From IMG/VR virus record IMGVR_UViG_3300045988_115788: a DNA stretch of 64,000 bases; one strand, given 5' to 3'. The translations under genes were made by a program, and so were the position numbers. Shown piece by piece: positions 9,011 to 64,000 of this stretch. The DNA comes from a virus. Position 1 is the first letter of the stretch. Each line of letters begins with the position of its first letter. Under the pieces are notes generated by a model. It was given only the letters and a program-made list of their open reading frames with translations, was not told where the DNA came from and made no database searches.

Positions 9011-9018
9011 AAAAGTTC

Positions 9019-9047: not shown

Positions 9048-9077
9048 ATAGTTACAGAAACAAAGGGGGACTTAAAA

Positions 9078-10203: not shown

Positions 10204-10910
10204 GAAAGCTTACAGGACGTGATGAAGGATTTGGATTTTTGGCTCCATTTCTTAATGATTTTAAAAGAGCGTTAGACGAAGAGATGAAGTGTGATACTGG
10301 AACTGACTTCTTGTGGATGAACTACAGTGGCTCTTCTGGTTGGCATCGAGCTTTTGTTGAAGCATGTATTGACAATGAAGAAGAAGATTTACTGATGTTT
10401 TACGAGAATCTTGAATGGTTTGAGTCTGACAAATTTGATAGTTTTTTGATTGATGTTGCTGTTTTCGTTGGTGTTATTAAACATGATAAGATGATGTTTA
10501 ATGAAGCAAAAGACGAAAAGAACAGTAGTGAGATTAAAATGTTGAATGGTCTAGTTGGCGCAAGTCTCGTTGGGCTAAATGAGCGTAGTTTTATTGTCAA
10601 TAAAGATGATATGCTAGTTTGCTTTACTCTTGAAGAAGACAAAGGTGTTTGTTGTGGATTTAATGAAATCACAACAAACTTGTTCGTTAGCGAAGAAGAA
10701 CTGGATAGAAATCCAATTATTACCAGTATACAAACAGAAAGAGATGCCGGTAATAACGAAGATAGACTCATTATTACTCTTTTTGGAGAGCAGAAACAGC
10801 TTGCAGAAATTGAATCTATGTCTAGCAGTGGGTCTGGTTGGAGTTGTGGCGCAACTGTGACTCTTCACTGTCTTAAAACAAACGAAAAAGAAGTTTTAAC
10901 AAGTTGGTAA
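10200..10910 (+). CDS. hypothetical protein
   Basis: 236-aa ORF with an ATGA overlap to the upstream gene. Confidence 0.6.
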   Translation: MRKLTGRDEGFGFLAPFLNDFKRALDEEMKCDTGTDFLWMNYSGSSGWHRAFVEACIDNEEEDLLMFYENLEWFESDKFDSFLIDVAVFVGVIKHDKMMFNEAKDEKNSSEIKMLNGLVGASLVGLNERSFIVNKDDMLVCFTLEEDKGVCCGFNEITTNLFVSEEELDRNPIITSIQTERDAGNNEDRLIITLFGEQKQLAEIESMSSSGSGWSCGATVTLHCLKTNEKEVLTSW

Positions 10911-10917
10911 AAATCTC

Positions 10918-10946
10918 TTGACAAACAAAAAGAAATGTGGTATAGT
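10918..10946 (+). promoter_or_regulatory. promoter TTGACA-17-TATAGT
   Basis: Read directly. Confidence 0.7.
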
Positions 10947-10974
10947 AGATACACTGAAGGTGGTGGTGATACAC

Positions 10975-21125: not shown

Positions 21126-21192
21126 GGAGAAAAAAGGTGAAGAGTTAAGTGAAAAAATGTTTGACTTTTATAAAAAAATAAATAAAAAGCGC

Positions 21193-21221
21193 TTGACAAT
21201 TCTGAAAAAATGTGGTATATT
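21193..21221 (+). promoter_or_regulatory. promoter TTGACA-17-TATATT
   Basis: Read directly. Confidence 0.7.
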
Positions 21222-21261
21222 ATAAATAGTCCAAAGGACAATATAATTTTTGGAGGTATTT

Positions 21262-31755: not shown

Positions 31756-34008
31756 ATGGTTGCCACAACGGAGCCAGAAAAAATTGAAGTAAAGTGTAAA
31801 CCATGTAAGGAACTTTATTTTGATGCCACTACTGGATACAGAGTTATGGCATGTATCCCTGTTGGCCCCCCTCCAAATGGTCTTGAGCTTAATAAATATG
31901 GAAATTTTAGCGTTTCTGGAAATGGATTAAATCTTCTAAAAGAAGGTGTTCCTATCAATCTCAAATTAACAGAAGCTAAAAGCAAATATTCAGCGTCTTA
32001 TAATTTTGCTGGACTTCCTGATTTAAGCATGGAAACAGATAAGGTACACGTCAATAGAGATGGCACGATGAGTATCTTATGTAGCTTTGCAACAAAAACA
32101 CAAGCTCAACACGTCATGGACGCTTATCCTAACTTTGTAGACATGGTTTTGAATGGCGAAGAAGACCAGTTAGATTATAAGAAAATTTATAACGTAGGAA
32201 AGAAACGACTTGAAGAATACATTTACAAAGTAAGAGAGAATAGCGGTGCAGTTCCTTTCCTACCTTTCTTGTTGAGTATTGGTGTTGCCGACTATGATAA
32301 AGCTGTTGAGATAACAAAAGATTATTCCAACCCTGATAATATGATTTATGCTTACAATCGCGACCCCTATAGTTTTATGATTGAAAGCATTAAATATTCT
32401 TTTGAAACTTCTGATAAAATCATTATTGAGCATAATGAGAAAATGGCAGAATCAAGAGAGCGTTGCGGCTGGGCTTTGTCTACTATTTTAAAACAAAATG
32501 AAACTGAAACTGGTGACACTAGAATTGCAAAAGAAATAGTTGAACAAGCCTTAAAAATTATGATTCCAGAGGCCGCACAGTGGTATGAAGTTGGCAAAAC
32601 TTTAAGCAACACAGTAGAGCATGAAGGTTGGCTTTCTCGTTCTGAAACATATTACGCAGAAAAAAGCATCGCTGATTTCATTAAAAATAGAATTGACAAT
32701 TCTGAACATGTTGATTTTGAATGGCAAAATTTTGTACAAAGAGAAGAAGGCAATCTCACAGAAGAACAGAGTAAAATTCTTCAACTAATGTGCGATAACG
32801 ATGTTGTTATCCTTACTGGTTGTGCAGGAAGTGGTAAATCGTTCACCACTAAAACTATCATTGATTTGTTAGAATCTAAGAATTTTACTTATCAATTATT
32901 GGCTCCTACAGGAATAGCTTCTAAAGTGCTTTCTACTGCAACGGGTAGACCAGCTTCTACAATTCATCGCTGGGCTGGTGCTGGCGACCCTAGAGATGTT
33001 GATTACGTTGTTGTTGATGAGCTTGGTATGGTTAGTGCGGAAGTATTAAAAATGCTAATCGAAGTTATTCCACCTACTTGTAAGATGATTTTGGTGTTTG
33101 ACCCCGCTCAGTTAATTAGTATTGGCGCAGGGAACGTTGCTAAAGATTTGGTAATGAGTCGGAGAGTTCCTATAGCTATGCTCACAAAAGTCTTTAGATA
33201 TGGTATCGGTGGCATAGCAACAATAGCCACAGACTTCCGTAAAGGCATTGTAAGCAACTTAGAAGAAGAGTTTGATGATTTTAAGTATTACAATACTAAT
33301 AATGTAAAGGAACAATTTGAAGGCGTTTTAGAAGCTTATCAGGGGTATTTAAATGATGGTTACACAAGAGAAAACATTCTAATCATCTCCCCTTTTAACG
33401 TAGGGGAAGTAGGCACAAAAGCTATCAATTTGGCGATTCAAGAAAAATATTCTCTTGGACAAGAACTTGAATATAAGACCAACTTTGATGGAAAATTTAG
33501 AATTGGCGACAAGGTTATTTGCAACAAAAATACTTATGATGCTAAAGTAGCAGAACAAACAAGTAGCGGATATGGATTTTCATTAAATGGTTCAGGCAAG
33601 TGCGAAACTACTTGGGTTTTCAACGGCAACCAGGGTATTGTACTTGGCGATTTTTACGATGATACAAGCAGAAGTAATTGTATTGTTGTAGAATTTGATT
33701 GTGGCATGGTCGCTTTCAGTCAAAAAGAATTTCAAAAACTATCCCTAGCTTATGCTTTGAGTTGTCATAGAGTACAAGGTTGTGAGTCACCTGCTGTTAT
33801 TTTTGTAGCCAACAGTCAGCACAAAAAGCTTTTGACCAACAATCTTTGTTATGTTGCCGTGACAAGAGCGAAAAAACACTTGACAATTATTGCAGACTAT
33901 GATACAATAGAAGAAGCATTAAGAAAGCATGAAGAAACGACTCGCAACACTTGGTTACAAGAAATGATGCAGAAAGGCTGGAAAGAACATGACAAAAAGT
34001 CAACTTAA
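31756..34008 (+). CDS. RecD-like SF1 DNA helicase
   Basis: Walker A GCAGSGKSFT, VVVDELGMV, and C-terminal SCHRVQGCE...YVAVTRAKKHL. The start may be TTG at 31738. Confidence 0.75.
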   Translation: MVATTEPEKIEVKCKPCKELYFDATTGYRVMACIPVGPPPNGLELNKYGNFSVSGNGLNLLKEGVPINLKLTEAKSKYSASYNFAGLPDLSMETDKVHVNRDGTMSILCSFATKTQAQHVMDAYPNFVDMVLNGEEDQLDYKKIYNVGKKRLEEYIYKVRENSGAVPFLPFLLSIGVADYDKAVEITKDYSNPDNMIYAYNRDPYSFMIESIKYSFETSDKIIIEHNEKMAESRERCGWALSTILKQNETETGDTRIAKEIVEQALKIMIPEAAQWYEVGKTLSNTVEHEGWLSRSETYYAEKSIADFIKNRIDNSEHVDFEWQNFVQREEGNLTEEQSKILQLMCDNDVVILTGCAGSGKSFTTKTIIDLLESKNFTYQLLAPTGIASKVLSTATGRPASTIHRWAGAGDPRDVDYVVVDELGMVSAEVLKMLIEVIPPTCKMILVFDPAQLISIGAGNVAKDLVMSRRVPIAMLTKVFRYGIGGIATIATDFRKGIVSNLEEEFDDFKYYNTNNVKEQFEGVLEAYQGYLNDGYTRENILIISPFNVGEVGTKAINLAIQEKYSLGQELEYKTNFDGKFRIGDKVICNKNTYDAKVAEQTSSGYGFSLNGSGKCETTWVFNGNQGIVLGDFYDDTSRSNCIVVEFDCGMVAFSQKEFQKLSLAYALSCHRVQGCESPAVIFVANSQHKKLLTNNLCYVAVTRAKKHLTIIADYDTIEEALRKHEETTRNTWLQEMMQKGWKEHDKKST

Positions 34009-49030: not shown

Positions 49031-49050
49031 TTAATTTTTTTAAAAAAGAC

Positions 49051-49079
49051 TTGACAAGCTGAAATTTTAATGATACAAT
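49051..49079 (+). promoter_or_regulatory. promoter TTGACA-17-TACAAT
   Basis: Read directly. Confidence 0.7.
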
Positions 49080-49127
49080 AAAGACACAAATAAAGGAGGT
49101 AACACGCATTGAAGAAGGTGAATAAAA

Positions 49128-50016: not shown

Positions 50017-50743
50017 ATGAGATATTTAGGTTCAAAAACAAAAATCGCTAAAGATATTGTACCAATTATTCAATCCTATATTGACAATAATAGTATTGAA
50101 CAATATTGGGAGCCATTTGTTGGTGGCGCTAACATTATTGATAAAATCAACTGTAAAGTTAGAGTAGGTACAGACATTCATCCACAGTTAATTGCTTTAC
50201 TTCAACAAGCACAAACTGATATTTCTGTATTTCCCGATACAATCAGCGAAGAAGAATATAAAGAAGTCAAGAATAACAAAGATAAATACCCAGATTGGTA
50301 TGTTGGTCTTGTAGGATTTTGTAGTTTTGGTTCTAAATACTGGGGGGGGGTATAGAAGAAGCTATGACAAAGAAGGCAGAGCCAAAGATGAAACGAAAGG
50401 TGTAATCAGCAATATCAAAAAGCAAGCTCTTAATTTAAAAGATATTAGCTTTAATTGTCTTGATTATAGTTTATGTACACCATACAATCTTCATCGAAGA
50501 ACATTGATTTATTGCGACCCTCCATATAAAGACACAACAAAATACTCTGGCACAAAACTTTTTGATTATGATAAATTTTATAATTGGTGTAAAATGATGT
50601 CAGATGCAGGACATATTGTGATTGTAAGTGAATATGATATGCCAAAAGAATTTACATGTATCTGGCAGAAGGAAATTAAGTGTATGGTTGACAAAAATGG
50701 AAGCAATAGAACAGAAAGGATTGAAAAACTTTGGCTACTTTAA
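50017..50743 (+). pseudogene. dam: Dam-like N6-adenine DNA methyltransferase split by a frameshift at a G9 tract (50342-50350)
   Basis: Frame 1 gives MRYLGSKTKIAKDI...EPFVGGAN...GSKYWGGV then a stop. The +1 frame continues GGYRRSY...IYCDPPYKDT. Eight G's would fuse both into 241 aa. Confidence 0.75.
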
Positions 50744-52088: not shown

Positions 52089-52304
52089 ATGGAAAAATAT
52101 CTAGTAAAAGTAACTCTTTTTGACGGAAATGAATACTACGTTTGTAAAGGATTTTTTACAAAATATACTCTTGATTCAAATATTTCTAATGGGATTCATT
52201 TTGATTTAAAAGAGGCTAACGCAGTTAGTCAAGAATTTAAAAAATATTATCCTGAATACGAAGTGCGACTAAGTAAAGTAGATTACGAGAAAGAAGAATT
52301 TTAG
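52089..52304 (+). CDS. small KF-x-S/T...A family protein
   Basis: EKYLVKVTLFDGNEYYV...GIHFDLKEANAVSQEF. Confidence 0.6.
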   Translation: MEKYLVKVTLFDGNEYYVCKGFFTKYTLDSNISNGIHFDLKEANAVSQEFKKYYPEYEVRLSKVDYEKEEF

Positions 52305-52325
52305 CATTGGGACACAATTTGGGAT

Positions 52326-52541
52326 ATGGAAAGGGCCGCAAATGACTTATTCAATTTTTTAAATTATAAAATCAAATATTTTCCAGATGAAACATTTTAT
52401 ACATGGTATGTATATACTGATTGCAGATGTCGTTGTTTGCTAGTAGAACAAAAAGTAGAAGGAATTTCAAAAGGCTTTTATCATGTATATGAAAATGATG
52501 TTGTTAGTGTGACAAGCAAAAAAATAACAAAAGAATTATGA
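52326..52541 (+). CDS. hypothetical protein
   Basis: 71-aa ORF; the last gene of the rightward arm. Confidence 0.55.
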   Translation: MERAANDLFNFLNYKIKYFPDETFYTWYVYTDCRCRCLLVEQKVEGISKGFYHVYENDVVSVTSKKITKEL

Positions 52542-52608
52542 TTTACTCTAAAAATGGAACGATTCTAAGAGTGTTTAATGGATAAATAATAATATAGCGT
52601 AAAAAATA

Positions 52609-52632
52609 CCCCTAGAGAATTATCTCTAGGGG
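52609..52632. terminator. bidirectional terminator hairpin between the convergent arms
   Basis: cccctagag / ctctagggg 9-bp stem with A/T runs on both sides. Confidence 0.65.
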
Positions 52633-52652
52633 TAAAATTATATTATGTTTTA

Positions 52653-53708
52653 TTAAACATAGAAGCAGGGGGCCACCGCATTGCAATAACGCGAGAAGTA
52701 GCCGTCCGCCGAACCATCAGCGTACACATAGCAAAAGGTGTTGGAGTCGCCGAAACACGGACTTCTGTTCCACCACCATACAGCACTGTTAGTGTTATTA
52801 TATTTATACCTAACCTTACTATTTCCATTTTTATAATAATCATACTGCTTCTGCTTATTCTGCTCTGCTGAATTAGCGTAATCTCTAGTACCATGAACTT
52901 CAAATTCCGCTTCTAAGCAGATAGTTTCAGTTGTTGCAGTTACGTTAGAAGAATTATTAGTACCGCCACCTGTATTATCGGTATATTTTGTAACAGTTTT
53001 CAATACGTTCTGAAGGCCAGTAGGTAGAGCATTTTTAATTGCAGACATGATTGTAGAACGCATATAACAACCTTCCCAACCACCGCTATTTGTATTACTG
53101 TCCCCATAAGACATGGAGAAATAACCAGAAGAAGTCATGGGGTATCGGCGATATTGGGAATCAACCAATCCAACAGTTTCGTTATTTACTTTACCGATGC
53201 AGAAATGAATACGATTATTCCCTTCGATTTCTGCGTTGTGATTGATGCCTAAGATATAAGCATCAATCTTTACATTACTAAAAGTAGTATTGCCTACTGT
53301 GCCATTCAATACAATACTTTTAGTATCGCCAACACTGAATAAATTAGCCGCATCACCACTTGCGCTAACAGCACTAATCTCGGCCCAAGAATAATCGTTC
53401 AAAGTACGAAAAACTTTGTATTGCTTAAATTCTCTTACTTCAATAGTTGCCGTATTACTTCCCGCCGTAACAGTCCAAGTACCATATCCTACGTTGCCAA
53501 TAGTCGCAATACCATCTTTACTTGTTGCAGATAAGGTCTTACCGCCGCTAACAGCTTGTGCAACAGTTCCCGTAGTACAGTATACTATAAATTGCGCTCC
53601 ACTTGGTTCATAATCAATAATATTATCTAAAAGAATTTCAGGATACAGAATATCATACTGATTCTGTTCATTTAGATTTCTCATCGTAAATTTATATTTT
53701 CCCATCAT
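52653..53708 (-). CDS. DGR target protein 1 (receptor-binding / tail-fibre protein with C-terminal variable region)
   Basis: C-terminus ...PCFGDSNTFCYVYADGSADGYFSRYCNAVAPCFYV is encoded by VR1. Paralog of 62130-63227. Confidence 0.8.
   Translation of the reverse strand: MMGKYKFTMRNLNEQNQYDILYPEILLDNIIDYEPSGAQFIVYCTTGTVAQAVSGGKTLSATSKDGIATIGNVGYGTWTVTAGSNTATIEVREFKQYKVFRTLNDYSWAEISAVSASGDAANLFSVGDTKSIVLNGTVGNTTFSNVKIDAYILGINHNAEIEGNNRIHFCIGKVNNETVGLVDSQYRRYPMTSSGYFSMSYGDSNTNSGGWEGCYMRSTIMSAIKNALPTGLQNVLKTVTKYTDNTGGGTNNSSNVTATTETICLEAEFEVHGTRDYANSAEQNKQKQYDYYKNGNSKVRYKYNNTNSAVWWWNRSPCFGDSNTFCYVYADGSADGYFSRYCNAVAPCFYV
52658..52761 (-). repeat. DGR variable repeat VR1 (with IMH-like 3' end)
   Basis: Aligns to TR 61464-61568. 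Hand count: 17 differences, 14 at TR adenines (coding sense) and 3 elsewhere. Confidence 0.8.
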
Positions 53709-53980
53709 TTTTCCCCTTCAAGATAAGCTTTGAATTTATCAATAATAGCCTTATCAACATATTGCTTATTAGTCAAATGATTACTGTCAGTAGGAGCGCC
53801 ACCAGAAATATCGTCACAAGTAAGAGTGATAACAGGGTCAGGTTTACCATTAACTACGACAGGAACATCTACAACTCCTTCTACGGCATTTACAACGGGC
53901 CTACCTAGCACATCCTTAGTTACATGGAATTGTTCTGCATTAAACAGATAACCGCCATCTGGAGCCTTAAATTCTGCCAT
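53705..53980 (-). CDS. small fibre-associated protein, paralog of 56931-57131
   Basis: MAEFKAPDGGYLFNAEQFHVTKDVLGRPVVNAVEG versus MAEVKAPGGNFFLNSEQFYITKNRYGQPVLNSID. Confidence 0.6.
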   Translation of the reverse strand: MAEFKAPDGGYLFNAEQFHVTKDVLGRPVVNAVEGVVDVPVVVNGKPDPVITLTCDDISGGAPTDSNHLTNKQYVDKAIIDKFKAYLEGEK

Positions 53981-53993
53981 GTATCATCCCTCC

Positions 53994-54437
53994 TTAAACT
54001 GTGCCAGTGACTTGATACCAGAAGTCGCCAGCTTTTTGATTGGTGGGCTGAGTTTCAGAAACTTTGATATCAATAGAACTTAGAGCAACAGCAGTAGGAA
54101 CGCCACTTTCATTAAATCCTACATATTGACCGCTGGTACCAGTTAGTGCGACAGCTTTACCGTTAGTATCACTAACAATCACACTATTTTTAGTAACAGT
54201 ATTACCTCCAGTAGTCTGCATATAATCAGCTTGAATATCTGCAATATCACTTGCTTGGGTATTAACTTCGTTAGTTAATGTAGTTAAATCGCTCTTGTTA
54301 GCAAGTTCAATTTCACCTTCGGTAATAGCTTTGTCGCCAACAAACACCTGCTTAGTGTCTTTGGCTAGGTACATCTGACCATCTTCAAGATTAGGCTTTT
54401 TCGCAAAAGTGCCTCGAAGTATTTGAATTTTTTTCAT
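53994..54437 (-). CDS. tail-fibre-like protein
   Basis: N-terminus IQILRGTFAKKPNLEDGQMYLAKDTKQVFVGD resembles the IQIKRG...DTGKLYIG N-terminus of the 55232 fibre. Confidence 0.55.
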   Translation of the reverse strand: MKKIQILRGTFAKKPNLEDGQMYLAKDTKQVFVGDKAITEGEIELANKSDLTTLTNEVNTQASDIADIQADYMQTTGGNTVTKNSVIVSDTNGKAVALTGTSGQYVGFNESGVPTAVALSSIDIKVSETQPTNQKAGDFWYQVTGTV

Positions 54438-54452
54438 ATTTACACATCCTCC

Positions 54453-55130
54453 TTAAAGAAATAGTACATTAGTTGCAATAGTATCGTCTGACATATCTAA
54501 ATCGCCGCCATCAATATCTCCAATGGTAAGCTGTTTATCTTTATCAAAGATAATACTTTTTTTATCTGTTTTTATAGATAATACATTGTTTGTAAAATCC
54601 AATCCATCCCCTGTTGCAAGCGTAGTTTCACTTGAAACTGGTATATCGCTAATTTCATACTCTTTCTTTTTGCTATCCCATAGCTTCCAGTATCCTGAAC
54701 TATCTGGAATAGGTGGATGTTGATATAATTCATCCAAATTACTTTCAATTTGATAAAATTCAGAAGGGAGAGGCCCTTTCTCTTGATAAGCAGAACAATA
54801 ACCTAATACAGGTTTTTTAATCCATGCTTCAAATTTATCGCTTAAAAAAACTTTATCATCATTGATTCGTCTTAGTTGAAACAAGCATTTGCCAACAGGG
54901 AGTTGACCGGCAGTGAATATATAATAATATTCGCCTAATTCATCATTGTAATTTAAACTTATAGTGTTATGATAAATACACCCGTCTTGCTTTGATTCAA
55001 CGTCCAATTTATAGTTACCAGGAACATCAACAACGCAAGAAAAAGTATCTACCAAATTATCAGTCTCAAAACCAATTACTCTATCATTAAAAAGGTAAGT
55101 GATTTTGCGACCTTTAAGCTCAACTCGCAT
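54453..55130 (-). CDS. structural hypothetical protein
   Basis: 225-aa ORF in the fibre cluster; C-terminus TIGDIDGGDLDM. Confidence 0.55.
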   Translation of the reverse strand: MRVELKGRKITYLFNDRVIGFETDNLVDTFSCVVDVPGNYKLDVESKQDGCIYHNTISLNYNDELGEYYYIFTAGQLPVGKCLFQLRRINDDKVFLSDKFEAWIKKPVLGYCSAYQEKGPLPSEFYQIESNLDELYQHPPIPDSSGYWKLWDSKKKEYEISDIPVSSETTLATGDGLDFTNNVLSIKTDKKSIIFDKDKQLTIGDIDGGDLDMSDDTIATNVLFL

Positions 55131-55231
55131 CTTCGTTCCGCCTCCTTTTATGAAGAAGTTAAAAAATAAGGGGAGAATGTTTATCCTCCCCTTAAAGTTA
55201 TTTTATATTAAATTGTATATTAAGTTTTCAA

Positions 55232-56851
55232 TTAAGCAATTTCACCAGCATCAATATCGCCAACAGAAATAACACCTGCGGCAACAGTGATAGAAGTACC
55301 ATCGGGCTTAACAGCACCAGCAACAGCAGTAGAAGCAACATCCATAGTAATTCCGTTAGTAGAATTTAGACTTAGACCGTTGCCAGCAACAACCTTGGTA
55401 GAAACAACACGCTCATCAGAAATAGCAATGCCGTCACCAGCAGTATAAGCCTTTTCGGTAGCAACGAATAGACCATCAGTACCTAGAGATAGAGCATTAC
55501 CAGAAGCGGCAGAGATAGCAACCTTTACGGTAGGAGCAGTAGCTTCACCGGCGACAGTAATAGACTTATCTGCGGCAGTTACGGAAGCAACCTTACCATC
55601 TGCGGCAGTCTGAACCTTTGCAATTTCTTCCTGGGCATACTTCTTAACACCGTAAACAGTAGCCTTATCGGCAGCATCAGCGGTAGTACCTAGAACAGCG
55701 GCAGCGGCACCAGCTTCATCAAAAGCGCTCTTGGGCTGATAAGCGGCAGTGTCTAGGCCCTTAACAGCAACGTCAGTACCTTCAACAGCGATAGTGCCAT
55801 TAGTAGCACCAGTTGCAATGTCGCTATTCTGTAGGGCAGAATCAGCTAGACCTAGAGAAGCCTTAACACCAGCGGCAAGCTTTTCTAGGGTGATAGAACC
55901 ATCGGTAATAGTGGCAGTAACCTTGTGGTCTTCAGAAACAGCAATAACGACCATATCATCTGCCTGAGAGCCAGAAGTAACATACTCAATTAGGTCAGCA
56001 ACATTGATATAAATCTTATCAGAAGTCTTGTTAGCAATGGTTAGCTCAATGTAAGTACCAGGGGTCTGACCTTCAGGATTGACAACAACCTTACCAGACT
56101 CAACAACCATGTCTTTAGGAATGTTGATGGAGGCGCCAACATTAGCGCCATCCTTCTGTAGGTTATAGACTGCGGCAAAATCACCAGAATCTTCAGCCTT
56201 AACAATGGTATAAGTAGAGGCGGCAGGAATGGTTACGGATAGACCGGCGGCACCAAGAGTTAGAGCATTGCCTACGGCAGGGTCTACCTTAACAGCAACA
56301 GTAGGTTCAGTGACAGAGCCACCAACAGTTACAGAAGTGTCGCCAGCCTTAACAGCATTTACAACTTCCTTCTTTAGATTTGCGGCGGCTTCAGTGGCGG
56401 CACCAGCAACATCAAAGTATTCAACATCCTTTGCGGAAGCAGTGCCAAGGCCAGTAATCTTGGAAGCAGGAATGTCGAACTTTAGGTCTTCTAGGGCTAG
56501 GTCAGCACCTTCAGTGACGCGGCCCTTTGCATCAACAGTAACCTTACCATAAGTACCAGCAGTAACGCCAGAAGCGGCTAGTTCTAGTACAAGATTAACT
56601 GCGGCAGTGCCATCAAAATCTACGGCAGGAGCAGTAGCATCGCCAGAAATGGAGAAAGCACGAGCAACAGCTAGCTTTGCGGCTTGGTCAGCAGTGCCAC
56701 CATCGGGGTTAATGATTACATTACCAGCAGTAGTACCATTAGTACCAATGTATAGCTTGCCAGTGTCACGGGCAAAAGCAAATTCACCAGCCTTTAGAGC
56801 GGTTGCGAGTACAGCGGCGGATAGACCTCTTTTAATTTGAATAGTCTGCAT
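55232..56851 (-). CDS. tail fibre protein (Ala/Gly/Thr/Val-rich, repeat-containing)
   Basis: Starts at MQTIQIKRG. Has repeated ...GNALTLGAAGLSV / GNALSLGTDGLFV / GNGLSLNSTNGITM motifs and a locally raised GC. Confidence 0.7.
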   Translation of the reverse strand: MQTIQIKRGLSAAVLATALKAGEFAFARDTGKLYIGTNGTTAGNVIINPDGGTADQAAKLAVARAFSISGDATAPAVDFDGTAAVNLVLELAASGVTAGTYGKVTVDAKGRVTEGADLALEDLKFDIPASKITGLGTASAKDVEYFDVAGAATEAAANLKKEVVNAVKAGDTSVTVGGSVTEPTVAVKVDPAVGNALTLGAAGLSVTIPAASTYTIVKAEDSGDFAAVYNLQKDGANVGASINIPKDMVVESGKVVVNPEGQTPGTYIELTIANKTSDKIYINVADLIEYVTSGSQADDMVVIAVSEDHKVTATITDGSITLEKLAAGVKASLGLADSALQNSDIATGATNGTIAVEGTDVAVKGLDTAAYQPKSAFDEAGAAAAVLGTTADAADKATVYGVKKYAQEEIAKVQTAADGKVASVTAADKSITVAGEATAPTVKVAISAASGNALSLGTDGLFVATEKAYTAGDGIAISDERVVSTKVVAGNGLSLNSTNGITMDVASTAVAGAVKPDGTSITVAAGVISVGDIDAGEIA

Positions 56852-56930
56852 AATATCAAACTCTTTTATAAAAATATTTTTATAATTAGCTTTAAGTGAA
56901 ATCTTAATCACAAAAAGCTATTTTTTAATT

Positions 56931-57131
56931 TTAAACAATCTCACCAGCATCTAGTTCAATGTTTTGGTGAGCTTTTTTATCATCATTGTGTTTATTTATA
57001 GCCACGACAATACTGCCGCCACCACCAGAATCAATAGAATTTAATACTGGTTGACCATATCTGTTTTTAGTAATATAAAATTGCTCACTGTTCAAGAAAA
57101 AGTTACCGCCAGGAGCTTTTACTTCGGCCAT
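56931..57131 (-). CDS. small fibre-associated protein, paralog of 53705-53980
   Basis: ATG at 57131 after AAAGGTGG. Ends in ELDAGEIV, like the fibre C-terminus DIDAGEIA. Confidence 0.55.
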   Translation of the reverse strand: MAEVKAPGGNFFLNSEQFYITKNRYGQPVLNSIDSGGGGSIVVAINKHNDDKKAHQNIELDAGEIV

Positions 57132-57221
57132 TAAAACGACCACCTTTCTTAACTCTGTACAAAGTTTTTATAGATTCTATATAAACTTAGCAAGCGGTAC
57201 CTCTCGCCAAGATAATTTTCT

Positions 57222-57533
57222 TTATTCTTCTGGCGCATTTACTTTTTTAGACATAGAGCATAGGTCATCAATTAGTTTAGACACTGCCTCCATGTCAATA
57301 TCATAATTAACTTCATTAGCAGAAGCCTTAATCATAGCAAGAACATACTGTTTCTTTTCTGCACCAGATTCGTATTGCTTTTCGGCCTCTTCCATGTATT
57401 TCATCACAAGATTCAGCACAATAGACCAATTCTTTTCTTTTACTGCTTTCTGAATATATCTTACAAGAGCAATAATAAGAGGAATAGTCGTTGCAATGCC
57501 GCTAAGAATAGAAATTACAATGTTAATATCCAT
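57222..57533 (-). CDS. putative holin (N-terminal TM)
   Basis: MDINIVISILSGIATTIPLIIALV is a TM segment; lies just downstream of the endolysin gene in the direction of transcription. Confidence 0.45.
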   Translation of the reverse strand: MDINIVISILSGIATTIPLIIALVRYIQKAVKEKNWSIVLNLVMKYMEEAEKQYESGAEKKQYVLAMIKASANEVNYDIDMEAVSKLIDDLCSMSKKVNAPEE

Positions 57534-57547
57534 ATATATTACCTCTT

Positions 57548-57877
57548 TTAAATAGTAGGTTCATTATAATCATTTATTTTAAACTCATTTGCTTTAGCTA
57601 AAGCATAAGAAATGCCATCGCCGTCTGCGCTTGTATTTTCATCTCTGTTTTTATCTACAATACGACTTAAAACAATACTACAAGCAGTTCCAATAGGTGT
57701 AAATACAATAGTCCAACAATAAAGGCTACCCGTATAATCCATACCAATACACTTAATAGCTAAATAAAAGCCGCCAGCTAAACCAAATGCTAAAAATAAA
57801 AGAATATAAACAGCTAGTCGATTTGTAAACCCTAACCGCTTAAAATGATTTCTTATTCTATGTTTTCTTTTAGCCAA
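57548..57877 (-). CDS. putative holin / membrane protein (2-3 TM)
   Basis: Hydrophobic segments LAVYILLFLAFGLAGGFYLAI and WTIVFTPIGTACSIVL; sits next to the endolysin. Confidence 0.45.
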   Translation of the reverse strand: MAKRKHRIRNHFKRLGFTNRLAVYILLFLAFGLAGGFYLAIKCIGMDYTGSLYCWTIVFTPIGTACSIVLSRIVDKNRDENTSADGDGISYALAKANEFKINDYNEPTI

Positions 57878-57878
57878 C

Positions 57879-58673
57879 TTAAATCAGCCCTTTTCTCCCC
57901 ATAACCGCAATAAATTCATCACGCTTTAAGAATCCTTCAGGCGCTTCACCATTAACTAGCTTCTGTTGAGTTGCTTTATTCCAATGCCCTTCTTGCTTAG
58001 ACCAATCAGGTTCAGGCTTAGAAGCAACGTATTGAGAAGCCTTTTGTAACAGTGTATATGCCTGTTCAGGAGTCATTTCTTTAATGAAAGTATTTATATC
58101 CATGTCTTCTTCAACCTCCTCTACGGGCTTTGTAGTGGCCTGTAAACGCTTATTTACTTCTGCCGCAATCTCACCATATTTACTGAACAAATAATTACCA
58201 GGACAAGACTTGTCTGGCCTAGTGTATCTATGTGGCACCATATTGCATGCCGCCCAATTACCTGTAAAAGCTGGACAATATTGCTTTCCTTCTTTCCAAA
58301 TAAGCTTCTTGATGCCATTACGTTTACAAATATCCACACATAAATTGATTAGAGCAACGTATGCTTTTTTAGTACATTCATAAGGTTCTTTATAACTTTG
58401 AATACTAGATACTTCAATAGTAACTACTTCATGGTCTACTTTATGGCTTGTACACCAAGCACGATTTTCTTCAAGAACATATTGACCAATTCTACCATCT
58501 GGCCCAATACCATAATGAGAAGAAGCTTTTCTTTGTTGAAAAACTTGTCCACAACCTTCAACAGAACCAGGCCCCGCCATAGTATGAATACTGATGCCCT
58601 TAATCCGGCCTTGTCTAGGCTTTGTACAATGAGGTGATAGTTTAGTATAATTTACTAATTTACTTTGAGACAT
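57879..58673 (-). CDS. N-acetylmuramoyl-L-alanine amidase endolysin (Amidase_2/PGRP type)
   Basis: IKGISIHTMAGPGSVEGCGQVF...SSHYGIGPDGRIGQYV...RAWCTS. Start taken at MSQSK. Confidence 0.75.
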   Translation of the reverse strand: MSQSKLVNYTKLSPHCTKPRQGRIKGISIHTMAGPGSVEGCGQVFQQRKASSHYGIGPDGRIGQYVLEENRAWCTSHKVDHEVVTIEVSSIQSYKEPYECTKKAYVALINLCVDICKRNGIKKLIWKEGKQYCPAFTGNWAACNMVPHRYTRPDKSCPGNYLFSKYGEIAAEVNKRLQATTKPVEEVEEDMDINTFIKEMTPEQAYTLLQKASQYVASKPEPDWSKQEGHWNKATQQKLVNGEAPEGFLKRDEFIAVMGRKGLI

Positions 58674-59343
58674 TAAAAGCACCATCCAACTTATTAACAA
58701 TATTATTCATTTGTTCTTGTGCGGCAGTAAGCATCTCATTCATTTTAGCCTTAAAAGTATCATTTAGTTCTTCGCCATATTGTACACCATACACCTTATT
58801 AGGTTCAGTATAAGTTTTCATTTGAGCTTTTAACATGTTGAAATAAGTGGTATGATAAGTAACGTGTGTCTTATAAGCCATATATAGTTCAGTAATAGAT
58901 TTTGCATCCATTACAGCACATTCTTCACCATCTGCATGATAAGGGAAAGAATTTGCACCAAGAACAATGGAATTAAACATAGAATCAATATTAGTTTGGT
59001 CGGCGGCAGTTAGAGAATAATGCTTGCCATTATAATCAATACCATCAATAATAGTTTTATTGCAAATGGCAGAAAGTTCAACACATTTCTTATCCATTGC
59101 TTCACCCAAATAGTCAAATTTAGGCAGTTGTTTAAGAGTTTCTTCATCTACTTCTCGAATTTCTACACTTTCAGGACAGCCAATTCCGTTAGTACCTAAA
59201 ATATTATAAGCAACAGACATAAACGCAACGCCCTTTGGATTGCTGGATTTATCTTGCCCATAACATCCATTGTCTTGTAGCTTAATATAATTTAGTTCAT
59301 CAGTAGTACCTATTACCAAATTATTTCGGATAATTGCATACAT
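58660..59343 (-). CDS. DUF4376-like protein (fibre-assembly/chaperone-like), paralog of 63246-63866
   Basis: FPYHADGEECAVMDAKSITELY...VTYHTTYFNMLKAQM versus YPYHADGELCELYSANNIKLI...KLYHLTYCNHLMSWI. Confidence 0.5.
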   Translation of the reverse strand: MYAIIRNNLVIGTTDELNYIKLQDNGCYGQDKSSNPKGVAFMSVAYNILGTNGIGCPESVEIREVDEETLKQLPKFDYLGEAMDKKCVELSAICNKTIIDGIDYNGKHYSLTAADQTNIDSMFNSIVLGANSFPYHADGEECAVMDAKSITELYMAYKTHVTYHTTYFNMLKAQMKTYTEPNKVYGVQYGEELNDTFKAKMNEMLTAAQEQMNNIVNKLDGAFNVSK

Positions 59344-59365
59344 TAAATAAACCAGTCCTTTCCGA

Positions 59366-59776
59366 TTAAATTTTTTGACAAATTGTCAAAATACGTTCTA
59401 GTTCTTCGATAGGTGCTTCATAAAAATCTTTACTCCACACCCAAAAGTCACTATGTTCTGCGCGGCGATATTTAGTTAAAGATTCATCTTCCCATAGTAA
59501 ATTCCAACGCTCTTGATGCTTCTTTTGATTAAAGGCCCTGTCTTTGTTAAGACGTTTTAGAATCTTGTCAATTAGTTCGCCACGAAGAAGTCCTTTGTTG
59601 TCGTTATTGATTGCAAAATAATCATAAGCATTTTGAGATGTATTGTAACATAGCGGCCCATTTTCGTTTGAAATAAGACCATTAGTTTCTGTACAAAGCG
59701 TTGCATAAGGCAGATTAACCATGCCTTGAAGTGCTTTTTGATTAAATCTCTTTTTTACAATATAATTATTTTTCAT
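59366..59776 (-). CDS. hypothetical protein immediately downstream of the DGR RT
   Basis: ATG at 59776 lies 1 nt after the RT stop, with a GAAAGGA RBS. Confidence 0.55.
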   Translation of the reverse strand: MKNNYIVKKRFNQKALQGMVNLPYATLCTETNGLISNENGPLCYNTSQNAYDYFAINNDNKGLLRGELIDKILKRLNKDRAFNQKKHQERWNLLWEDESLTKYRRAEHSDFWVWSKDFYEAPIEELERILTICQKI

Positions 59777-59777
59777 T

Positions 59778-61184
59778 TTATTCCTTTCTAATTTGCGGCT
59801 CATTTAAAATATCGTGTATTTTATCAAAGATGTCCATAGGCTTAGATTTCATTTTAGCAAGATAATCTTTTCGTTCGCAAAGAGGTATGAATCCATTATA
59901 CATCATCGACTCAATTTTCTTTGATTGAAGGTCAAGAAAAATCTTTAATTGTTTTTTAGAACAATAATAGACCCAACCACAATAATCATTCCAAACATAT
60001 TTGATATAACATTTAAAAGGTTTATTTTGTTGACTCAAATATTGAATGAAAGTAGATACAAACTTTTTATCCATATTATATATGGTTCGATAGCAACCAA
60101 AATGTTTTGCATAGCCTCTCCAACATTGGTATGTTACACAAATATCATCTATTGACATTTTTCCCTCGTCAGCCCATTTCTTGAAAATTTTTAATTTTCT
60201 TCTAATTCTTTTAAGACTATCTTTATTCAATTTTGTTACGATTTTTCCACTATCTGTCAAAGTAAATCTAATTTTCAAAAAAGTAAAACTATGGTGCTTA
60301 AAAGGAGTTATGCGATTTTTCTTTTCGTTTATTTTTATGCCAACAGAATTGGCTAATATTTCAACAAAATTTTTTATCTCTTTTAGTTCTTCAAAAGAAT
60401 TGCTGATTACATAACCATCATCCATATATCTGCCATAACCTTTTATGCGAAAAACATCTTTAATGTAATGGTCTATAAGATTAGCATAATCTAAAGCAAT
60501 ATTTTGTGATATTGGACTGCCTAATCCAACTCCAAATGGCCCCTTAGAATCATGTAAAGTAAGAAATTCATCAATAAATTTATCTCCAAGAACAATCAAC
60601 TGTCTATCTTTTATATATTTTCTTAATTCCATTTTTGCACCTTCATGCGGAATTGAAGCAAAATATTTAGAAAAATCATATTGATAAATGCCTCCTTTAT
60701 AACCATACTTTCTATAATGATGCCGCAGTTGCTTTTTTAGCATCTGTATGGCAAAGTGGATACCTTTATTTTTCAACGAAGCTGAATTAGTTGAAACAAA
60801 ACTTTTAGAATAAGCTTCTGTCATTATTTCGTTGCAAAAACACTTTTGAACCGCTCTATCTTCAATATTCAAAGCATGTATGTCTCTTATTTTTCCATGC
60901 TCATTTGTTTTAAAGAAGCAAAAGCCATGAAATTTATAGGCATTAGCATCCATCTTTTTCTTTAATTCAAAAGACCTTATTAACAATTCATTTTCAAAAT
61001 TTTGTACTGAAGTTTTCCATCTAACTCCTTTACAACATTCTTTTGATGCTCTATATAAATTTTCAAAAGAATAAACTTCATCATAACTTTTATTTACTAT
61101 ATTTCTTTTCTTTAAATCTCTTTTTGCTTTACGCCTTAAATATCTTTTCTCATGGCGCTCTTTACTTGTCAGAATTTTCACCAC
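59778..61184 (-). CDS. DGR reverse transcriptase
   Basis: RT motifs IYQYDFSKYFASI, GLGSPISQNIALDY (DGR-type SQ motif) and GRYMDDGYVI (YMDD). Adjacent TR and avd. Confidence 0.9.
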   Translation of the reverse strand: MVKILTSKERHEKRYLRRKAKRDLKKRNIVNKSYDEVYSFENLYRASKECCKGVRWKTSVQNFENELLIRSFELKKKMDANAYKFHGFCFFKTNEHGKIRDIHALNIEDRAVQKCFCNEIMTEAYSKSFVSTNSASLKNKGIHFAIQMLKKQLRHHYRKYGYKGGIYQYDFSKYFASIPHEGAKMELRKYIKDRQLIVLGDKFIDEFLTLHDSKGPFGVGLGSPISQNIALDYANLIDHYIKDVFRIKGYGRYMDDGYVISNSFEELKEIKNFVEILANSVGIKINEKKNRITPFKHHSFTFLKIRFTLTDSGKIVTKLNKDSLKRIRRKLKIFKKWADEGKMSIDDICVTYQCWRGYAKHFGCYRTIYNMDKKFVSTFIQYLSQQNKPFKCYIKYVWNDYCGWVYYCSKKQLKIFLDLQSKKIESMMYNGFIPLCERKDYLAKMKSKPMDIFDKIHDILNEPQIRKE

Positions 61185-61463
61185 TTTTTATTTTAATTTT
61201 TTCGTATAATTTTTAGTTTTGTTAAAAACTAAGATAATTTGCTAATTACATAACTGGTACCTATGAAATTTGTCTAAAATTATCAAACAACAAACCATGC
61301 AAGAAGCGTCCAGGACACAGTATCGAAAAAATAATTTAGGATGCCAAAGCAGAGCCAAGGATATTTCCCCCTTCTATGAAAAGATTATTTTCACCTAGCA
61401 AAAACTAGGTTACTTCTCAATCCCAGTAGCCATCTATAACCAAAAAATGGCGGCTACTATTGG

Positions 61464-61568
61464 CATAGAATCAGGGGGGCCACCGCATTGCAATTCCGCG
61501 AGTTGTTGTTGTTCGCCGAACCATCAGTGTTCACATTGCAGAAGTTGTTGGAGTTGTCGGAATACGGA
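61464..61568 (-). repeat. DGR template repeat (TR), AAC/AAT-rich
   Basis: Coding sense reads PYSDNSNNFCNVNTDGSANNNNSRNCNAVAP. 26 adenines by hand count. Noncoding position between avd and RT. Confidence 0.85.
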
Positions 61569-61595
61569 AACGGGAAATACCCTATTTTTTATTTA

Positions 61596-62054
61596 TTATT
61601 CTTTTAATTCATTTTGATACTTTTTATATCTTTTCTTTGTGTCTTGTATTACACCCGAAATCAATTTCCTTTCGGTTGTTATTAAATCTACCCAATCTTG
61701 AAAAATATTATTTGCCTGCTCTTTCGTCCCAAGAAAATTATTTCCTTCTCTTATATATTCATATACGGTTGAAACCATAAAAGTTAAAGCATAAATTTTA
61801 GACCTTGCAATATATAAATGAGATAATCTTTTTTCATACTCTTCTTGAGACATGGTTTTACTTATATAATAAGAATTTGCTTGAAAAACACTAAGACTAA
61901 TATCTCGTGTCAAATTATATAAATCTTGATACATATTAAATTTATAAGATTTTGGAAACTTTTTAGATAATTTTATAGTAAAAATAAAAAGTTTCTTTGC
62001 TGTAGTTAAAAACTCCGCTTTAGAAGGATTTCTTTGTGCTTTATATACAGACAT
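61596..62054 (-). CDS. avd: DGR accessory variability determinant (Avd, four-helix-bundle type)
   Basis: 152-aa basic helical protein between the target gene and TR, the canonical DGR position. Confidence 0.7.
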   Translation of the reverse strand: MSVYKAQRNPSKAEFLTTAKKLFIFTIKLSKKFPKSYKFNMYQDLYNLTRDISLSVFQANSYYISKTMSQEEYEKRLSHLYIARSKIYALTFMVSTVYEYIREGNNFLGTKEQANNIFQDWVDLITTERKLISGVIQDTKKRYKKYQNELKE

Positions 62055-62086
62055 ATTTTATTAAATTCCTTTTCTTCTTGATGTAT

Positions 62087-62114
62087 GCCCTGCCACGCTT
62101 GCGCGAAGCAGGGC
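62087..62114 (-). other. GC-rich hairpin just downstream of VR2
   Basis: gccctgc / gcagggc 7-bp stem, about 16-43 nt past the target-2 stop codon. Confidence 0.5.
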
Positions 62115-62129
62115 TTTGGATTTTACAGA

Positions 62130-63227
62130 TTAAACATAGAAGCAGGGGGCCACCGCATCGCAATACCGCGAGTTGGTGCCGGACGCCGAACCACCAGTGT
62201 GCACAAAGCAGAAGTAGCCGGAGTTGCCGGAATACGGACTCCTGTTCCACCAATATACAGCACTGTTAGTGTTATTATATTCATATCTAACTTTACTATT
62301 CCCGTTTTTATAATAGTCATACTGTTGTTGTTTGTTTTGTTCATAACTATTAGCGTATTTTCTAGTACCATGAACCTCAAATTCTGCTTCAAGACAAATT
62401 GTTTCAGTTGTTGCAGTTACATAAGAAGAGTTGCTACCACCGCCGCCACCTGTATTATCAGTATACTTCGTAACTGTCTTTAACACATTTTGAAGGTCAG
62501 TAGGTAAAACATCTTTAATTGCAGGAATAATTGTAGAACGCATATAACAACCTTCCCAACCTCCAACATTTGTATCGCTATCACCATAAGACATAGAGAA
62601 ATAACCAGAAGAAGTTATTGGATATTGTTCATATTTGGAATCAATTAGTCCAACAGTTTCGTTATTAACCTTGCCAATACAAAAGTGAATACGATTATTC
62701 CCTTCGATTTCTGCATTGTGGTTAATACCTAAGATATAAGCATCAATAGATAAATTAGAAAACGTAGTATTACCTACTTGCCCGTTAATAATAATCGTTT
62801 TTGTATCCCCTACATTCCAATAATTAGAAGCTTCTCCACTTGCGCTAATTTCACTAATAATGTTCCACGAATTATCATTAAGTGTAGCACTAACAACAGT
62901 AAAAGATATTTCATAAATCTTTAAAGCGTCTATTGTTATGTTTTGCGTTTTAGTAGTCCCTGAGATATTAGTAGAAACTAAATATTCTCCATATTGAAGA
63001 TTATCAAAAGTAGCAATGCCAGTTGTGTTAGTTACAGCTGTTGCGGTTTTAGCCCCACTTAAATTTACAACCTGTCCTGCTGCTCCACCGACAATAGCTA
63101 CATCAATTCTTGCTCCTCCTAAATTTTCCAAGTCTTTTATATTTTCTTTCACCGTGTTGGGATACAGTATATCATAACTATTAGAAGCTTCATTATACTC
63201 TCGCATAGTGATTAGATATTCTGCCAT
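62130..63227 (-). CDS. DGR target protein 2 (receptor-binding protein with C-terminal variable region)
   Basis: C-terminus ...PYSGNSGYFCFVHTGGSASGTNSRYCDAVAPCFYV is encoded by VR2. AAGGAGG RBS. Confidence 0.85.
   Translation of the reverse strand: MAEYLITMREYNEASNSYDILYPNTVKENIKDLENLGGARIDVAIVGGAAGQVVNLSGAKTATAVTNTTGIATFDNLQYGEYLVSTNISGTTKTQNITIDALKIYEISFTVVSATLNDNSWNIISEISASGEASNYWNVGDTKTIIINGQVGNTTFSNLSIDAYILGINHNAEIEGNNRIHFCIGKVNNETVGLIDSKYEQYPITSSGYFSMSYGDSDTNVGGWEGCYMRSTIIPAIKDVLPTDLQNVLKTVTKYTDNTGGGGGSNSSYVTATTETICLEAEFEVHGTRKYANSYEQNKQQQYDYYKNGNSKVRYEYNNTNSAVYWWNRSPYSGNSGYFCFVHTGGSASGTNSRYCDAVAPCFYV
62135..62238 (-). repeat. DGR variable repeat VR2 (with IMH-like 3' end)
   Basis: Aligns to TR with 15 differences (hand count), all at TR adenines in coding sense. 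Confidence 0.85.
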
Positions 63228-63245
63228 TGCACAACCTCCTTATTG

Positions 63246-63866
63246 TTATTTTTCTTCCATTTTTATTTTCAAAATTTTTTCCATATTTTCTTTTAAATCA
63301 TCAGGAAGTTCAATCCCATAATAAATTGACTTTAATTCTTTCATCTTGTTACATCTTTTAATCCAAGACATAAGATGATTGCAATAAGTCAAATGATAAA
63401 GTTTATGTTGAACAAAAGCATTACTAATTAACTTGATATTATTAGCACTATATAGTTCGCATAATTCACCATCAGCATGATAAGGATATTCTTTCATTCC
63501 ATTATTAACAGCATCTAATGCAGTTGCAATATTGATTTGGTCTGTTTCTTCCATAGAAAAATGTTTAACAGTTTCATTTTCTAATGTTACGTCGCAACCA
63601 GTAACAATAGCTTTACTACATTTATCAGAAACTTCTTCTAATTTTTGATTTCTTAAAGGAGAAATATCAATATTAAATACTGAAACAGGAATTAGTTTTT
63701 TAACAATATTATTTTCATCTAGTTCAATATTGACGAAAGGAAAAGTAGAAGGAATTTCAATTTCATCTGGGATTAAAGCATAACCTTCTGGCGGCGATAT
63801 TTCTATTTCAGTTACAAAATTCTCATGCGCCCCATTGATATATTCTTCTATTTTAATGTATCTCAT
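63246..63866 (-). CDS. DUF4376-like protein, paralog of 58660-59343
   Basis: ATG at 63866 after AAGGGGTG; contains the YPYHADGE motif. Confidence 0.5.
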   Translation of the reverse strand: MRYIKIEEYINGAHENFVTEIEISPPEGYALIPDEIEIPSTFPFVNIELDENNIVKKLIPVSVFNIDISPLRNQKLEEVSDKCSKAIVTGCDVTLENETVKHFSMEETDQINIATALDAVNNGMKEYPYHADGELCELYSANNIKLISNAFVQHKLYHLTYCNHLMSWIKRCNKMKELKSIYYGIELPDDLKENMEKILKIKMEEK

Positions 63867-64000
63867 AACAAAACACCCCTTATTGAACCTCACATAGTTA
63901 AAGTCACATGATTCTTGAGAACTCTTTTCCATTGAAAAGATATTTATCAAGCTATCCCGACCGTTCCTGCCGTTCTTTTTTGTATTTGCTAGACTACTTC

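Follow-up and report, generated by a model that had tools for sequence, protein, structure and literature searches.

Does the reverse-transcriptase cassette of the virus record IMGVR_UViG_3300045988_115788 (IMG/VR) constitute a complete diversity-generating retroelement (DGR), and has it recently been rewriting its target gene? The window, i.e., the whole 64,000-nt stretch of this record that we analyzed, is numbered 5' to 3', and the cassette lies on its minus strand. A preliminary description had proposed, from the letters and a list of open reading frames (ORFs), a DGR that diversifies the receptor-binding tip of a phage. We re-read the strand from 59500 to 64000 together with the ORF list and found the order target gene 2 (ending in variable repeat 2, VR2), hairpin, avd, template repeat (TR), spacer and reverse transcriptase (RT); all coordinates given earlier proved right. 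We are highly confident that the cassette is a complete, recently active DGR of an uncultivated gut phage of ~120 kb, working by the mechanism proposed below, and the host of this phage is probably a member of the Oscillospiraceae or of related Clostridia. The element is a canonical DGR, a clean instance of a well-known system that shows no departure from known DGR biology. Three observations had been named as incompatible with a DGR, namely TR/VR differences spread over all four bases, an RT grouping with retrons or group II introns, and population data lacking excess variation at adenine-templated sites. Each was examined or approximated and none was found, which supports the earlier interpretation.

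The TR and VR2 were compared both by local alignment and in register. Their 94-nt cores differ at 15 positions and all 15 are TR adenines, an outcome with a hypergeometric probability of 8.3e-11 given 26 adenines in the core. The recomputed alignment reproduced exactly the 15 positions listed previously, and the TR and VR2 peptides, as well as the initiation of mutagenic homing sequences of the VR (IMH) and the TR (IMH*), had been quoted correctly. All 26 TR adenines occupy codon position 1 or 2, a stop codon cannot be reached from any of the codons, and the theoretical repertoire amounts to ~2e15 peptides. The TR is non-coding and lies 280 nt upstream of the RT, while VR2 ends three codons ahead of the stop codon of target 2. 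Both repeats stand out as GC islands (52-63% GC) in a region of 32% GC.

At the 3' boundary, the letters next to the GC-rich GGTGGCCCCC on its 3' side are TGCTTC in both VRs and in all alleles, and TGATTC in every TR. The sole constant difference between IMH and IMH* is a C at 62142 versus an A at 61471, and the same C/A boundary occurs in the related locus L022. The divergence described earlier stands with respect to this C/A difference, but the additional C in the poly-C tract of the TR (61471-61479) is polymorphic among relatives, with C6 in six genomes and C5 in three (L001, L005 and L006 noted). Judged from the sequences, the diverged IMH* and IMH would mark the direction of transfer.

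Relatives of the phage were collected from IMG/VR by scanning with a TR pattern masked at every adenine, by scanning with an IMH pattern, and by exact-protein look-ups. The same phage was recovered from many human and pig gut metagenomes as contigs of 117-123 kb. All nine related genomes that contain the TR have an identical TR core (94 of 94 positions), and VR2 occurs in at least five DNA alleles. Variable columns account for 26.6% of the VR2 core versus 0% of the TR; the corresponding values are 2.5% for the RT, 1.0% for the spacer and 0.7% for avd. When the window was aligned with L004 over 4006 columns and with L007 over 3139, either genome departed from it at 17 positions, every one of them within the VR2 core. 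In L019, which comes from another sample, the same 17 positions differ and no others do in 11,871 columns (window 52130-64000). Adenine-templated sites account for 16 of the 17; the remaining one, a C>T change at 62185, also separates the otherwise identical alleles P0264 and P0265 and looks like an ordinary point mutation that arose after homing. Target-2 proteins that show no difference beyond the VR carry three distinct VR2 alleles. As genomes that are identical over 4-12 kb differ only in VR2, this repeat must have been rewritten very recently. The VR2-only differences among otherwise identical genomes are direct observations, as are the component parts, the adenine-only signature and the invariant TR. 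The population check proposed in the preliminary description thus returned a large excess of variation at adenine-templated sites, and these genome comparisons point, indirectly and at the population level, to ongoing mutagenic retrohoming of VR2 only. An exact look-up of P0265 returned no record, and that of the target-1 protein led to a single place and is not usable for counting VR2 alleles.

The RT matched Pfam RVT_1 (4e-14) and phrog_1423 (1e-72). Its best match in the PDB was the Bordetella DGR RT (8ub7_A, E 3e-14), followed by 9ioa (2e-9) and by 5hhj and 5hhl (5.6e-5), the latter two labelled 'Retron-type reverse transcriptase'. The motifs LGSPISQ and YMDD are invariant in 22 aligned homologs (residues L221, G222, S223, Q227 and Y253-D256); LGSPISQ aligns to IGSLTSQ of the Bordetella RT (bRT) and is the DGR-type [ILV]GxxxSQ motif. 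Residues 34-342 align to residues 9-295 of the 328-aa bRT. The length of 468 aa reported earlier is correct, but the extension past the end of the Bordetella RT measures ~93 aa and not ~130 aa. Within the C-terminal tail, which has no Pfam match, residues 343 to ~425 (SYQSW..., KFKCT...GW.Y) are common to most of the RT clade, and residues ~425-468 are specific to a 'long-form' sub-clade that includes a Flintibacter muris prophage.

Two other classes of RT were considered and rejected. For a group II intron, TIGR04416 scored 79 bits against a cut-off of 300, and the Rfam scan of 59000-64000, run at an E-value threshold, contained no group II intron RNA. For a retron, NF038233 scored 30.5 bits against a cut-off of 235, and the adjoining RNA is RT-2, beside a TR with a cognate VR, and not msr/msd. 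With 8ub7 as the best PDB match and both NCBIfam models far below their cut-offs, the RT does not group with either class. Directly after the RT stop codon, a 136-aa ORF begins (59366-59777, minus strand) that belongs to the function-unknown family phrog_29409. It is kept even where relatives lack the RT or the entire cassette and is therefore probably no DGR component.

The 152-aa protein encoded upstream of the TR matched phrog_3206, 'Avd protein of DGR', at 2e-4 and NF033474 at 0.039, and 12 of 19 members of its family matched Pfam bAvd weakly (0.0095 or weaker). PDB sequence searches with the single sequence and with a profile returned nothing meaningful. Its AlphaFold2 (AF2) model, with a predicted local distance difference test score (pLDDT) of 88.9, consists of four long helices. 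The top Foldseek matches were 2gsc and 2rld, which belong to the Avd-related PF05635 family, and also Bordetella Avd (8ub7_B), with a probability of 1.00 and template modelling scores of 0.63 (query-normalised) and 0.76 (target-normalised). As modeled, the protein is a basic four-helix bundle encoded between target and TR, as in accessory Avd proteins.

The spacer between TR and RT matched the Rfam RT-2 RNA (RF03077) over its full length (model positions 1-222), with 93.4 bits against a gathering threshold of 40 (E 3e-21). RT-2 is found at the equal place and orientation in L005, in L022 (RT ~50% identical) and in all 16 genomic relatives tested, and in each of the 19 related DGRs tested it lies between an adenine-mutagenised TR and a DGR RT. 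Weinberg et al. (2017) gave no function for RT-2 and tied only RT-10 to a DGR, that of phage BPP-1, while speculating that other RT-n motifs may serve other DGRs (PMC5737381). Our literature search found no paper assigning RT-2 to DGRs.

In the minimum free energy (MFE) fold, AGGGUAUUUCCC, just 5' of the TR, pairs with GGGAAAUAUCCU, which lies in a stretch that Rfam draws unpaired, just past the conserved AAGGAG box. The duplex contains 12 of 12 possible pairs, a value reached by none of 200 shuffles. In an anchored test of 18 loci, complete pairing was found in seven, with different compensating sequences, and 10-11 of 12 pairs formed in eight more; the test was ungapped, and loci with a bulged duplex (L022, L027, L044 and L055) were mis-registered. 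Unrestricted RNA duplex folding gave over-extended, non-significant structures. The TR is flanked, then, by structured RNA in the form of RT-2 and a covarying 12/12 duplex. The duplex that brackets the TR has its counterpart in the 'cPRT Stop' duplex, whose presence in many DGRs was predicted by Handa et al. from the BPP-1 ribonucleoprotein structure (bioRxiv 10.1101/2023.10.23.563531). The same authors place an Avd-binding stem-loop just downstream of the TR, and the position of the stem-loop predicted there in the present cassette agrees with it, making it a candidate for this element.

Both targets contain the Pfam domain DUF6273 (4e-9 in target 2 and 4e-12 in target 1) and match phrog_37900 (2e-85 for target 2); target 2 additionally matches SpaA (5e-5) and has 1840 homologs. 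DUF6273 has been described as a C-lectin-like DGR target domain with a C-terminal VR (PMC10743442, PMC11792537, bioRxiv 10.1101/2024.10.15.618418), and it is this Pfam match, together with the published models, that suggests a C-type lectin fold for the target. Among 120 homologous proteins, the AAC/AAT-templated codons reach an entropy of 3.0-3.6 bits (12-16 residue types), with one exception at 2.6, and the scaffold residues between the AAY-templated codons are nearly invariant. The AF2 model of target 2, built from a 44-sequence alignment, is confident only for residues 40-120, which form an N-terminal immunoglobulin (Ig)-like beta-sandwich, and matches in PDB searches with the target were confined to this sandwich. 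Both genes are located inside a tail-fibre and lysis module, near DUF4376 genes, phrog_1348 'tail fiber' genes and a gene for a 559-aa fibre-like protein. Most likely, the 15 hypervaried surface codons of target 2 belong to a receptor- or glycan-binding tip, a receptor-binding role being suggested by this gene context.

Two DUF4376 paralogs flank the DGR cassette (63246-63950 and 58660-59343, minus strand), and a 70-aa ORF is paralogous to a 91-aa ORF upstream of target 1 (56931-57143 and 53705-53980, minus strand). The tail-tip module appears to be partly duplicated.

A window-wide repeat search revealed a third copy of the repeat (52668-52761) at the 3' end of target 1, 9.5 kb from the cassette. 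The two targets have their last ~600 nt in common at 82-84% DNA identity, and the IMH of this remote repeat, VR1, is identical to that of VR2. Compared with the TR, VR1 has 17 mismatches, 14 of them at adenines (P 2e-7) and three elsewhere (C>T twice and G>T once); the latter affect ~4% of the non-adenine sites, a value near the between-lineage divergence. VR1 is the same in the window and in L019, whose VR2 alleles differ, and the exact target-1 protein occurs on 13 contigs, with the target 2 alleles on 7, 4 and 4 contigs. In relatives with flanks that are 96-97% identical, VR1 differs at adenine sites. L012-L015, which are near-identical around target 1, end at least ~290 nt before VR1, probably at the paralog repeat, and hold no VR1 information.

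The two variable repeats are followed by different hairpins. That of VR2 begins ~20 nt past the IMH and has a stem of 8 bp + 3 bp, a CGC-GCAA-GCG cap and no T-run (-13.1 kcal/mol, z -3.0), and is a candidate for a target-recognition hairpin or cruciform. The VR1 hairpin is AT-capped with a TAAT loop and is followed by TTTTTT (-15.8 kcal/mol, z -6.8); it is conserved in L010 and L017 and is an ordinary terminator, outside the GC/GNRA hairpin class. In 56 DGR loci of relatives, the VR is followed within ~5-46 nt by a perfect GC-rich hairpin, which almost never precedes a T-run; its cap is GNRA in the six closest loci and a CT(n)GT loop in most others. A GC hairpin of this kind is present at VR2 and absent at VR1, and the downstream DNA is a plausible cause of the stasis of VR1. 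A target-2-type protein of 364 aa, P0271, carries the VR1 peptide of the window exactly, and L018 resembles a target 1/target 2 hybrid, which suggests that the paralogous targets exchange their 3' ends by recombination.

These observations can be brought together in a joint reading, which we put forward tentatively, as possible rather than probable. The downstream hairpin would gate the choice of target: VR2, with its GC/GNRA hairpin, would be rewritten, while VR1, with its terminator, would be no retrohoming substrate and would owe its adenine-site diversity second-hand to recombination with the VR2 paralog. Separately, a large clade of Clostridia DGRs would use RT-2 and the covarying duplex as its RNA scaffold for cis-priming and stop. 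If this were true, RT-2 would acquire a function, and a second natural RNA architecture could be set beside the BPP-1 ribonucleoprotein.

The RT alignment was used to scan GTDB genomes and identified 80 loci, mostly in Oscillospiraceae, Oscillibacter, Christensenellaceae, Lachnospiraceae and other Clostridia. An adenine-biased TR/VR pair was found in 61 of these 80 loci, in the order VR, ~0.6-1 kb, TR, spacer, RT; upstream sequence extends to 1.5 kb or more in 62 loci, and 56 of those have such a pair. In L022, all 19 mismatches are at adenines and the TR peptide is near-identical. Two relatives of the phage have lost parts of the cassette. L001 (IMGVR_UViG_3300045988_133080), ~95% identical, has a 1.46-kb deletion with its junction near L001:2995 at a CTTTG microhomology; it corresponds to window ~59883-61344, and through it the spacer loses its 3' part and the RT the greater part of its length. 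Its TR is identical at 94 of 94 positions and its VR2 has 7 non-adenine differences. L016 (IMGVR_UViG_3300045988_123492) is devoid of the avd-TR-RT block, its target being joined to the ORF that follows the RT (junction L016:3188-3195, window 62114 joined to 59828), and its VR keeps the IMH, with 18 of 24 mismatches at adenines. The VRs of these RT-loss and cassette-loss relatives hold more non-adenine differences.

For the mechanism we adopted the model of bioRxiv 10.1101/2023.10.23.563531, so that co-transcription, cis-priming, the roles of hairpin and duplex and the binding function are proposed by analogy with Bordetella phage BPP-1. The avd gene, TR, RT-2 spacer and RT would be carried on one minus-strand transcript, in which the TR-region RNA (12-bp duplex, 3' stem-loop and RT-2) would fold and assemble with the RT and the basic Avd bundle. 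Synthesis of cDNA would be cis-primed from the spacer and the TR copied faithfully except opposite adenines. The 3' end of the DUF6273 target gene would then receive the mutagenised cDNA in place of VR2, with the IMH and the downstream GC/GNRA hairpin setting the direction, such that the TR with its IMH* would never be overwritten. The expected outcome would be 15 hypervaried surface codons, up to the full peptide repertoire calculated above, in a protein of the tail-fibre/lysis module.

Several points weigh against a complete and recently active DGR. Activity was deduced from assembled consensus sequences of different samples. One VR2 allele recurs in several samples (L004, L007 and L019-L021), so the turnover of VR2 is not so fast that every sample differs, and VR1 shows no sign of current diversification in the window lineage. 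A promoter and terminator scan gave results not above shuffled expectation and no significant assignment, and the Avd protein is weakly supported at the sequence level. For target 2, the AF2 model is poor over residues 169-365 (pLDDT below 50), which include the VR-bearing DUF6273 domain, and it gives the putative C-type lectin fold no confirmation. Part of the evidence would fit a fossil cassette, whose adenine bias records past activity and which no longer diversifies in the window lineage: VR1 is static and has three non-adenine mismatches, one VR2 allele is common to several samples, and relatives persist without the RT (L001) or without the whole avd-TR-RT block (L016). We nevertheless consider this very improbable. 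Purifying selection acts on the RT, avd, TR and RT-2, all of which are intact, with 0% variability in the TR; VR2 in the window has no non-adenine mismatch, and the 17 VR2-only positions, 16 of them adenine-templated, at which genomes identical over 4-12 kb differ require very recent rewriting. Harder still to credit is that VR2 diversity arose, with no retrohoming, from recombination or gene conversion between target paralogs and co-circulating strains under diversifying selection. The ~600 nt that the targets have in common at 82-84% identity, the exact VR1 peptide of the window in P0271 and the recombinant appearance of L018 are in line with such exchange, and recombination may contribute to VR1. 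It cannot account, however, for the restriction of the differences to the adenines of an invariant non-coding repeat (P 8e-11), nor for their sharp limits, which coincide with the ends of the repeat and leave the flanks unchanged.

A different question is whether a genuine DGR here serves virion-surface or secreted adhesins (Hoc- or tentaclin-like) that bind mucus or other glycans, instead of receptor-binding tail tips. Hoc-like tentaclins, which have Ig-like domains, are among the DUF6273 targets of DGRs (PMC10743442; bioRxiv 10.64898/2026.05.08.723808), and target 2 has an Ig-like beta-sandwich at its N terminus. Both targets nonetheless lie within the tail-fibre/lysis module, and the protein is short and has its VR at the extreme C terminus, the arrangement of FP_Taranis-type targets and Mtd-type receptor-binding proteins, and not N-terminal ahead of Ig repeats as in tentaclins; we regard the adhesin alternative as unlikely, though worth keeping in mind. 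A complete, recently active DGR acting on a tail-module binding protein remains our preferred reading, and its features are collected in Table 1.

Table 1. Features of the DGR cassette and of the remote target in the window
Feature	Coordinates	Strand	Basis
Target gene 2, 365 aa	62130-63227	minus	ORF; DUF6273; ends in VR2
VR2	62135-62238 (core 62145-62238; IMH 62135-62154, GGTGGCCCCCTGCTTCTATG)	minus	TR alignment
GC-rich hairpin 3' of VR2	62087-62114	minus	fold; sequence verified
avd-like ORF, 152 aa, pI 9.7	61596-62054	minus	profiles and structure comparison
Upstream arm (AGGGUAUUUCCC) of predicted TR-bracketing RNA duplex	61572-61583	minus	12/12 pairs with 61358-61369
TR, non-coding template repeat	61464-61568 (IMH* 61464-61484, GGTGGCCCCCCTGATTCTATG)	minus	VR alignment
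Predicted stem-loop directly 3' of TR, AGUAGCC...GGCUACU	61425-61458	minus	MFE fold
Rfam RT-2 RNA (RF03077), TR-RT spacer; includes duplex arm 61358-61369	61177-61427	minus	93.4 bits
DGR reverse transcriptase, 468 aa, GTG start	59778-61184	minus	ORF; RVT_1; phrog_1423
Target gene 1, 351 aa, paralog of target 2	52653-53708	minus	ORF; DUF6273
VR1, remote variable repeat	52658-52761	minus	TR alignment
Hairpin 3' of VR1, ordinary terminator	52607-52634	minus	fold; sequence verified

The surrounding genome offered further observations. Coding strand and GC skew switch at ~52000, with plus-strand genes before this point and the minus-strand tail fibre/lysis/DGR module at 52-64 kb. Just past the window end (>64000), this strain carries an IS605-family TnpB gene of 367 aa (domains OrfB_IS605 and Cas12f1-like_TNB; L003:963-2066, L019:8136-9239) directly upstream of the DUF4376 gene; because it is absent from L005 and L006, it is an insertion polymorphism beside the DGR module. 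A family of ~46-nt repeats on the plus strand (6697-6742, 7012-7057, 9001-9050, 10908-10953, 21183-21228, 33870-33915, 49041-49086 and others) holds near-consensus TTGACA-N17-TATAGT/TATAAT promoters after an A-tract, which presumably serve the phage as strong promoters of its own for early or middle genes. Three phage tRNAs, two tRNA-Met (CAU) and one tRNA-Arg (GCG), are encoded at 7071-7693 on the plus strand. The sequence of a D12-class DNA methyltransferase is divided between two overlapping plus-strand ORFs (50017-50355 and 50327-50743; 112 and 138 aa). As the same split is found in another sample (L026:4957-5683), it reflects a frameshift that is conserved or else a genuine gene in two parts. 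Two of the related prophage loci contain type II hammerhead ribozymes, located ~4 kb downstream of their DGR RT (L045:8035-8099 and L047:7962-8023).

Tens of thousands of DGRs have been catalogued, and the present element is routine for the field, since all its components come from families already described, and DGRs with two DUF6273 targets have been published for phages of gut Clostridia. For the phage itself, the findings would mean that a widespread ~120-kb lineage of the human and pig gut continually re-engineers a tail-module binding protein, which bears on host range and persistence. Two points are less routine and extend known DGR biology. The active VR2 and the inactive VR1 provide a natural contrast, with the same IMH and different types of downstream hairpin, and throughout a DGR clade the spacer between TR and RT can be identified as the orphan RT-2 motif, accompanied by a covarying TR-bracketing duplex as predicted from the BPP-1 cryo-EM structure. 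The natural RT-loss and cassette-loss variants can serve as controls.

The prototype, the BPP-1 DGR (mtd-avd-TR-brt), shares with the present cassette the order target(VR)-avd-TR-spacer-RT; its RT (8ub7_A) is the best PDB match and its Avd (8ub7_B) a fold match. In contrast to BPP-1, the target here is a DUF6273 protein and not Mtd, the RT has 468 instead of 328 aa, the spacer is RT-2 and not RT-10, IMH and IMH* differ at 1-2 positions only, and a second, remote VR is present. The hairpin, which directly adjoins the IMH in BPP-1, is here ~20 nt away from it. RF03077 itself is alike in its full-length, high-scoring match directly upstream of the RT gene and unlike in that its original paper attached no function to it.

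A megablast of the cassette against INPHARED phages gave no match. At the protein level, the nearest annotated phages are Roseburia Shimadzu and Faecalibacterium Pioen, Roos and FP_Taranis, with 33-39% identity in the RT and ~40% in the target. Faecalibacterium FP_Taranis, Roos, Pioen and Lelie and Roseburia Shimadzu are phages of gut Clostridia and, as here, their DUF6273 targets have the VR at the C-terminal end of the domain (PMC11792537). They differ in size (~45-54 kb, the Faecalibacterium ones being prophages, versus ~120 kb here), none of them covers the RT past residue ~389, and they have no similarity at the DNA level. The arrangement of one TR with two DUF6273 targets, one adjacent and one remote, is found in phages nd4 and nd12 (tentaclins) and in Toutatisvirus (PMC10743442; bioRxiv 10.1101/2024.10.15.618418). 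In Toutatisvirus, of the human gut, the remote target is 17 kb away and some relatives without a DGR keep both targets (bioRxiv 10.1101/2024.10.15.618418), a situation matched here by L001 and L016. Unlike in these phages, both targets of the present element are short paralogs with C-terminal VRs and no tentaclin architecture, and the population data indicate that only the adjacent VR is currently rewritten.

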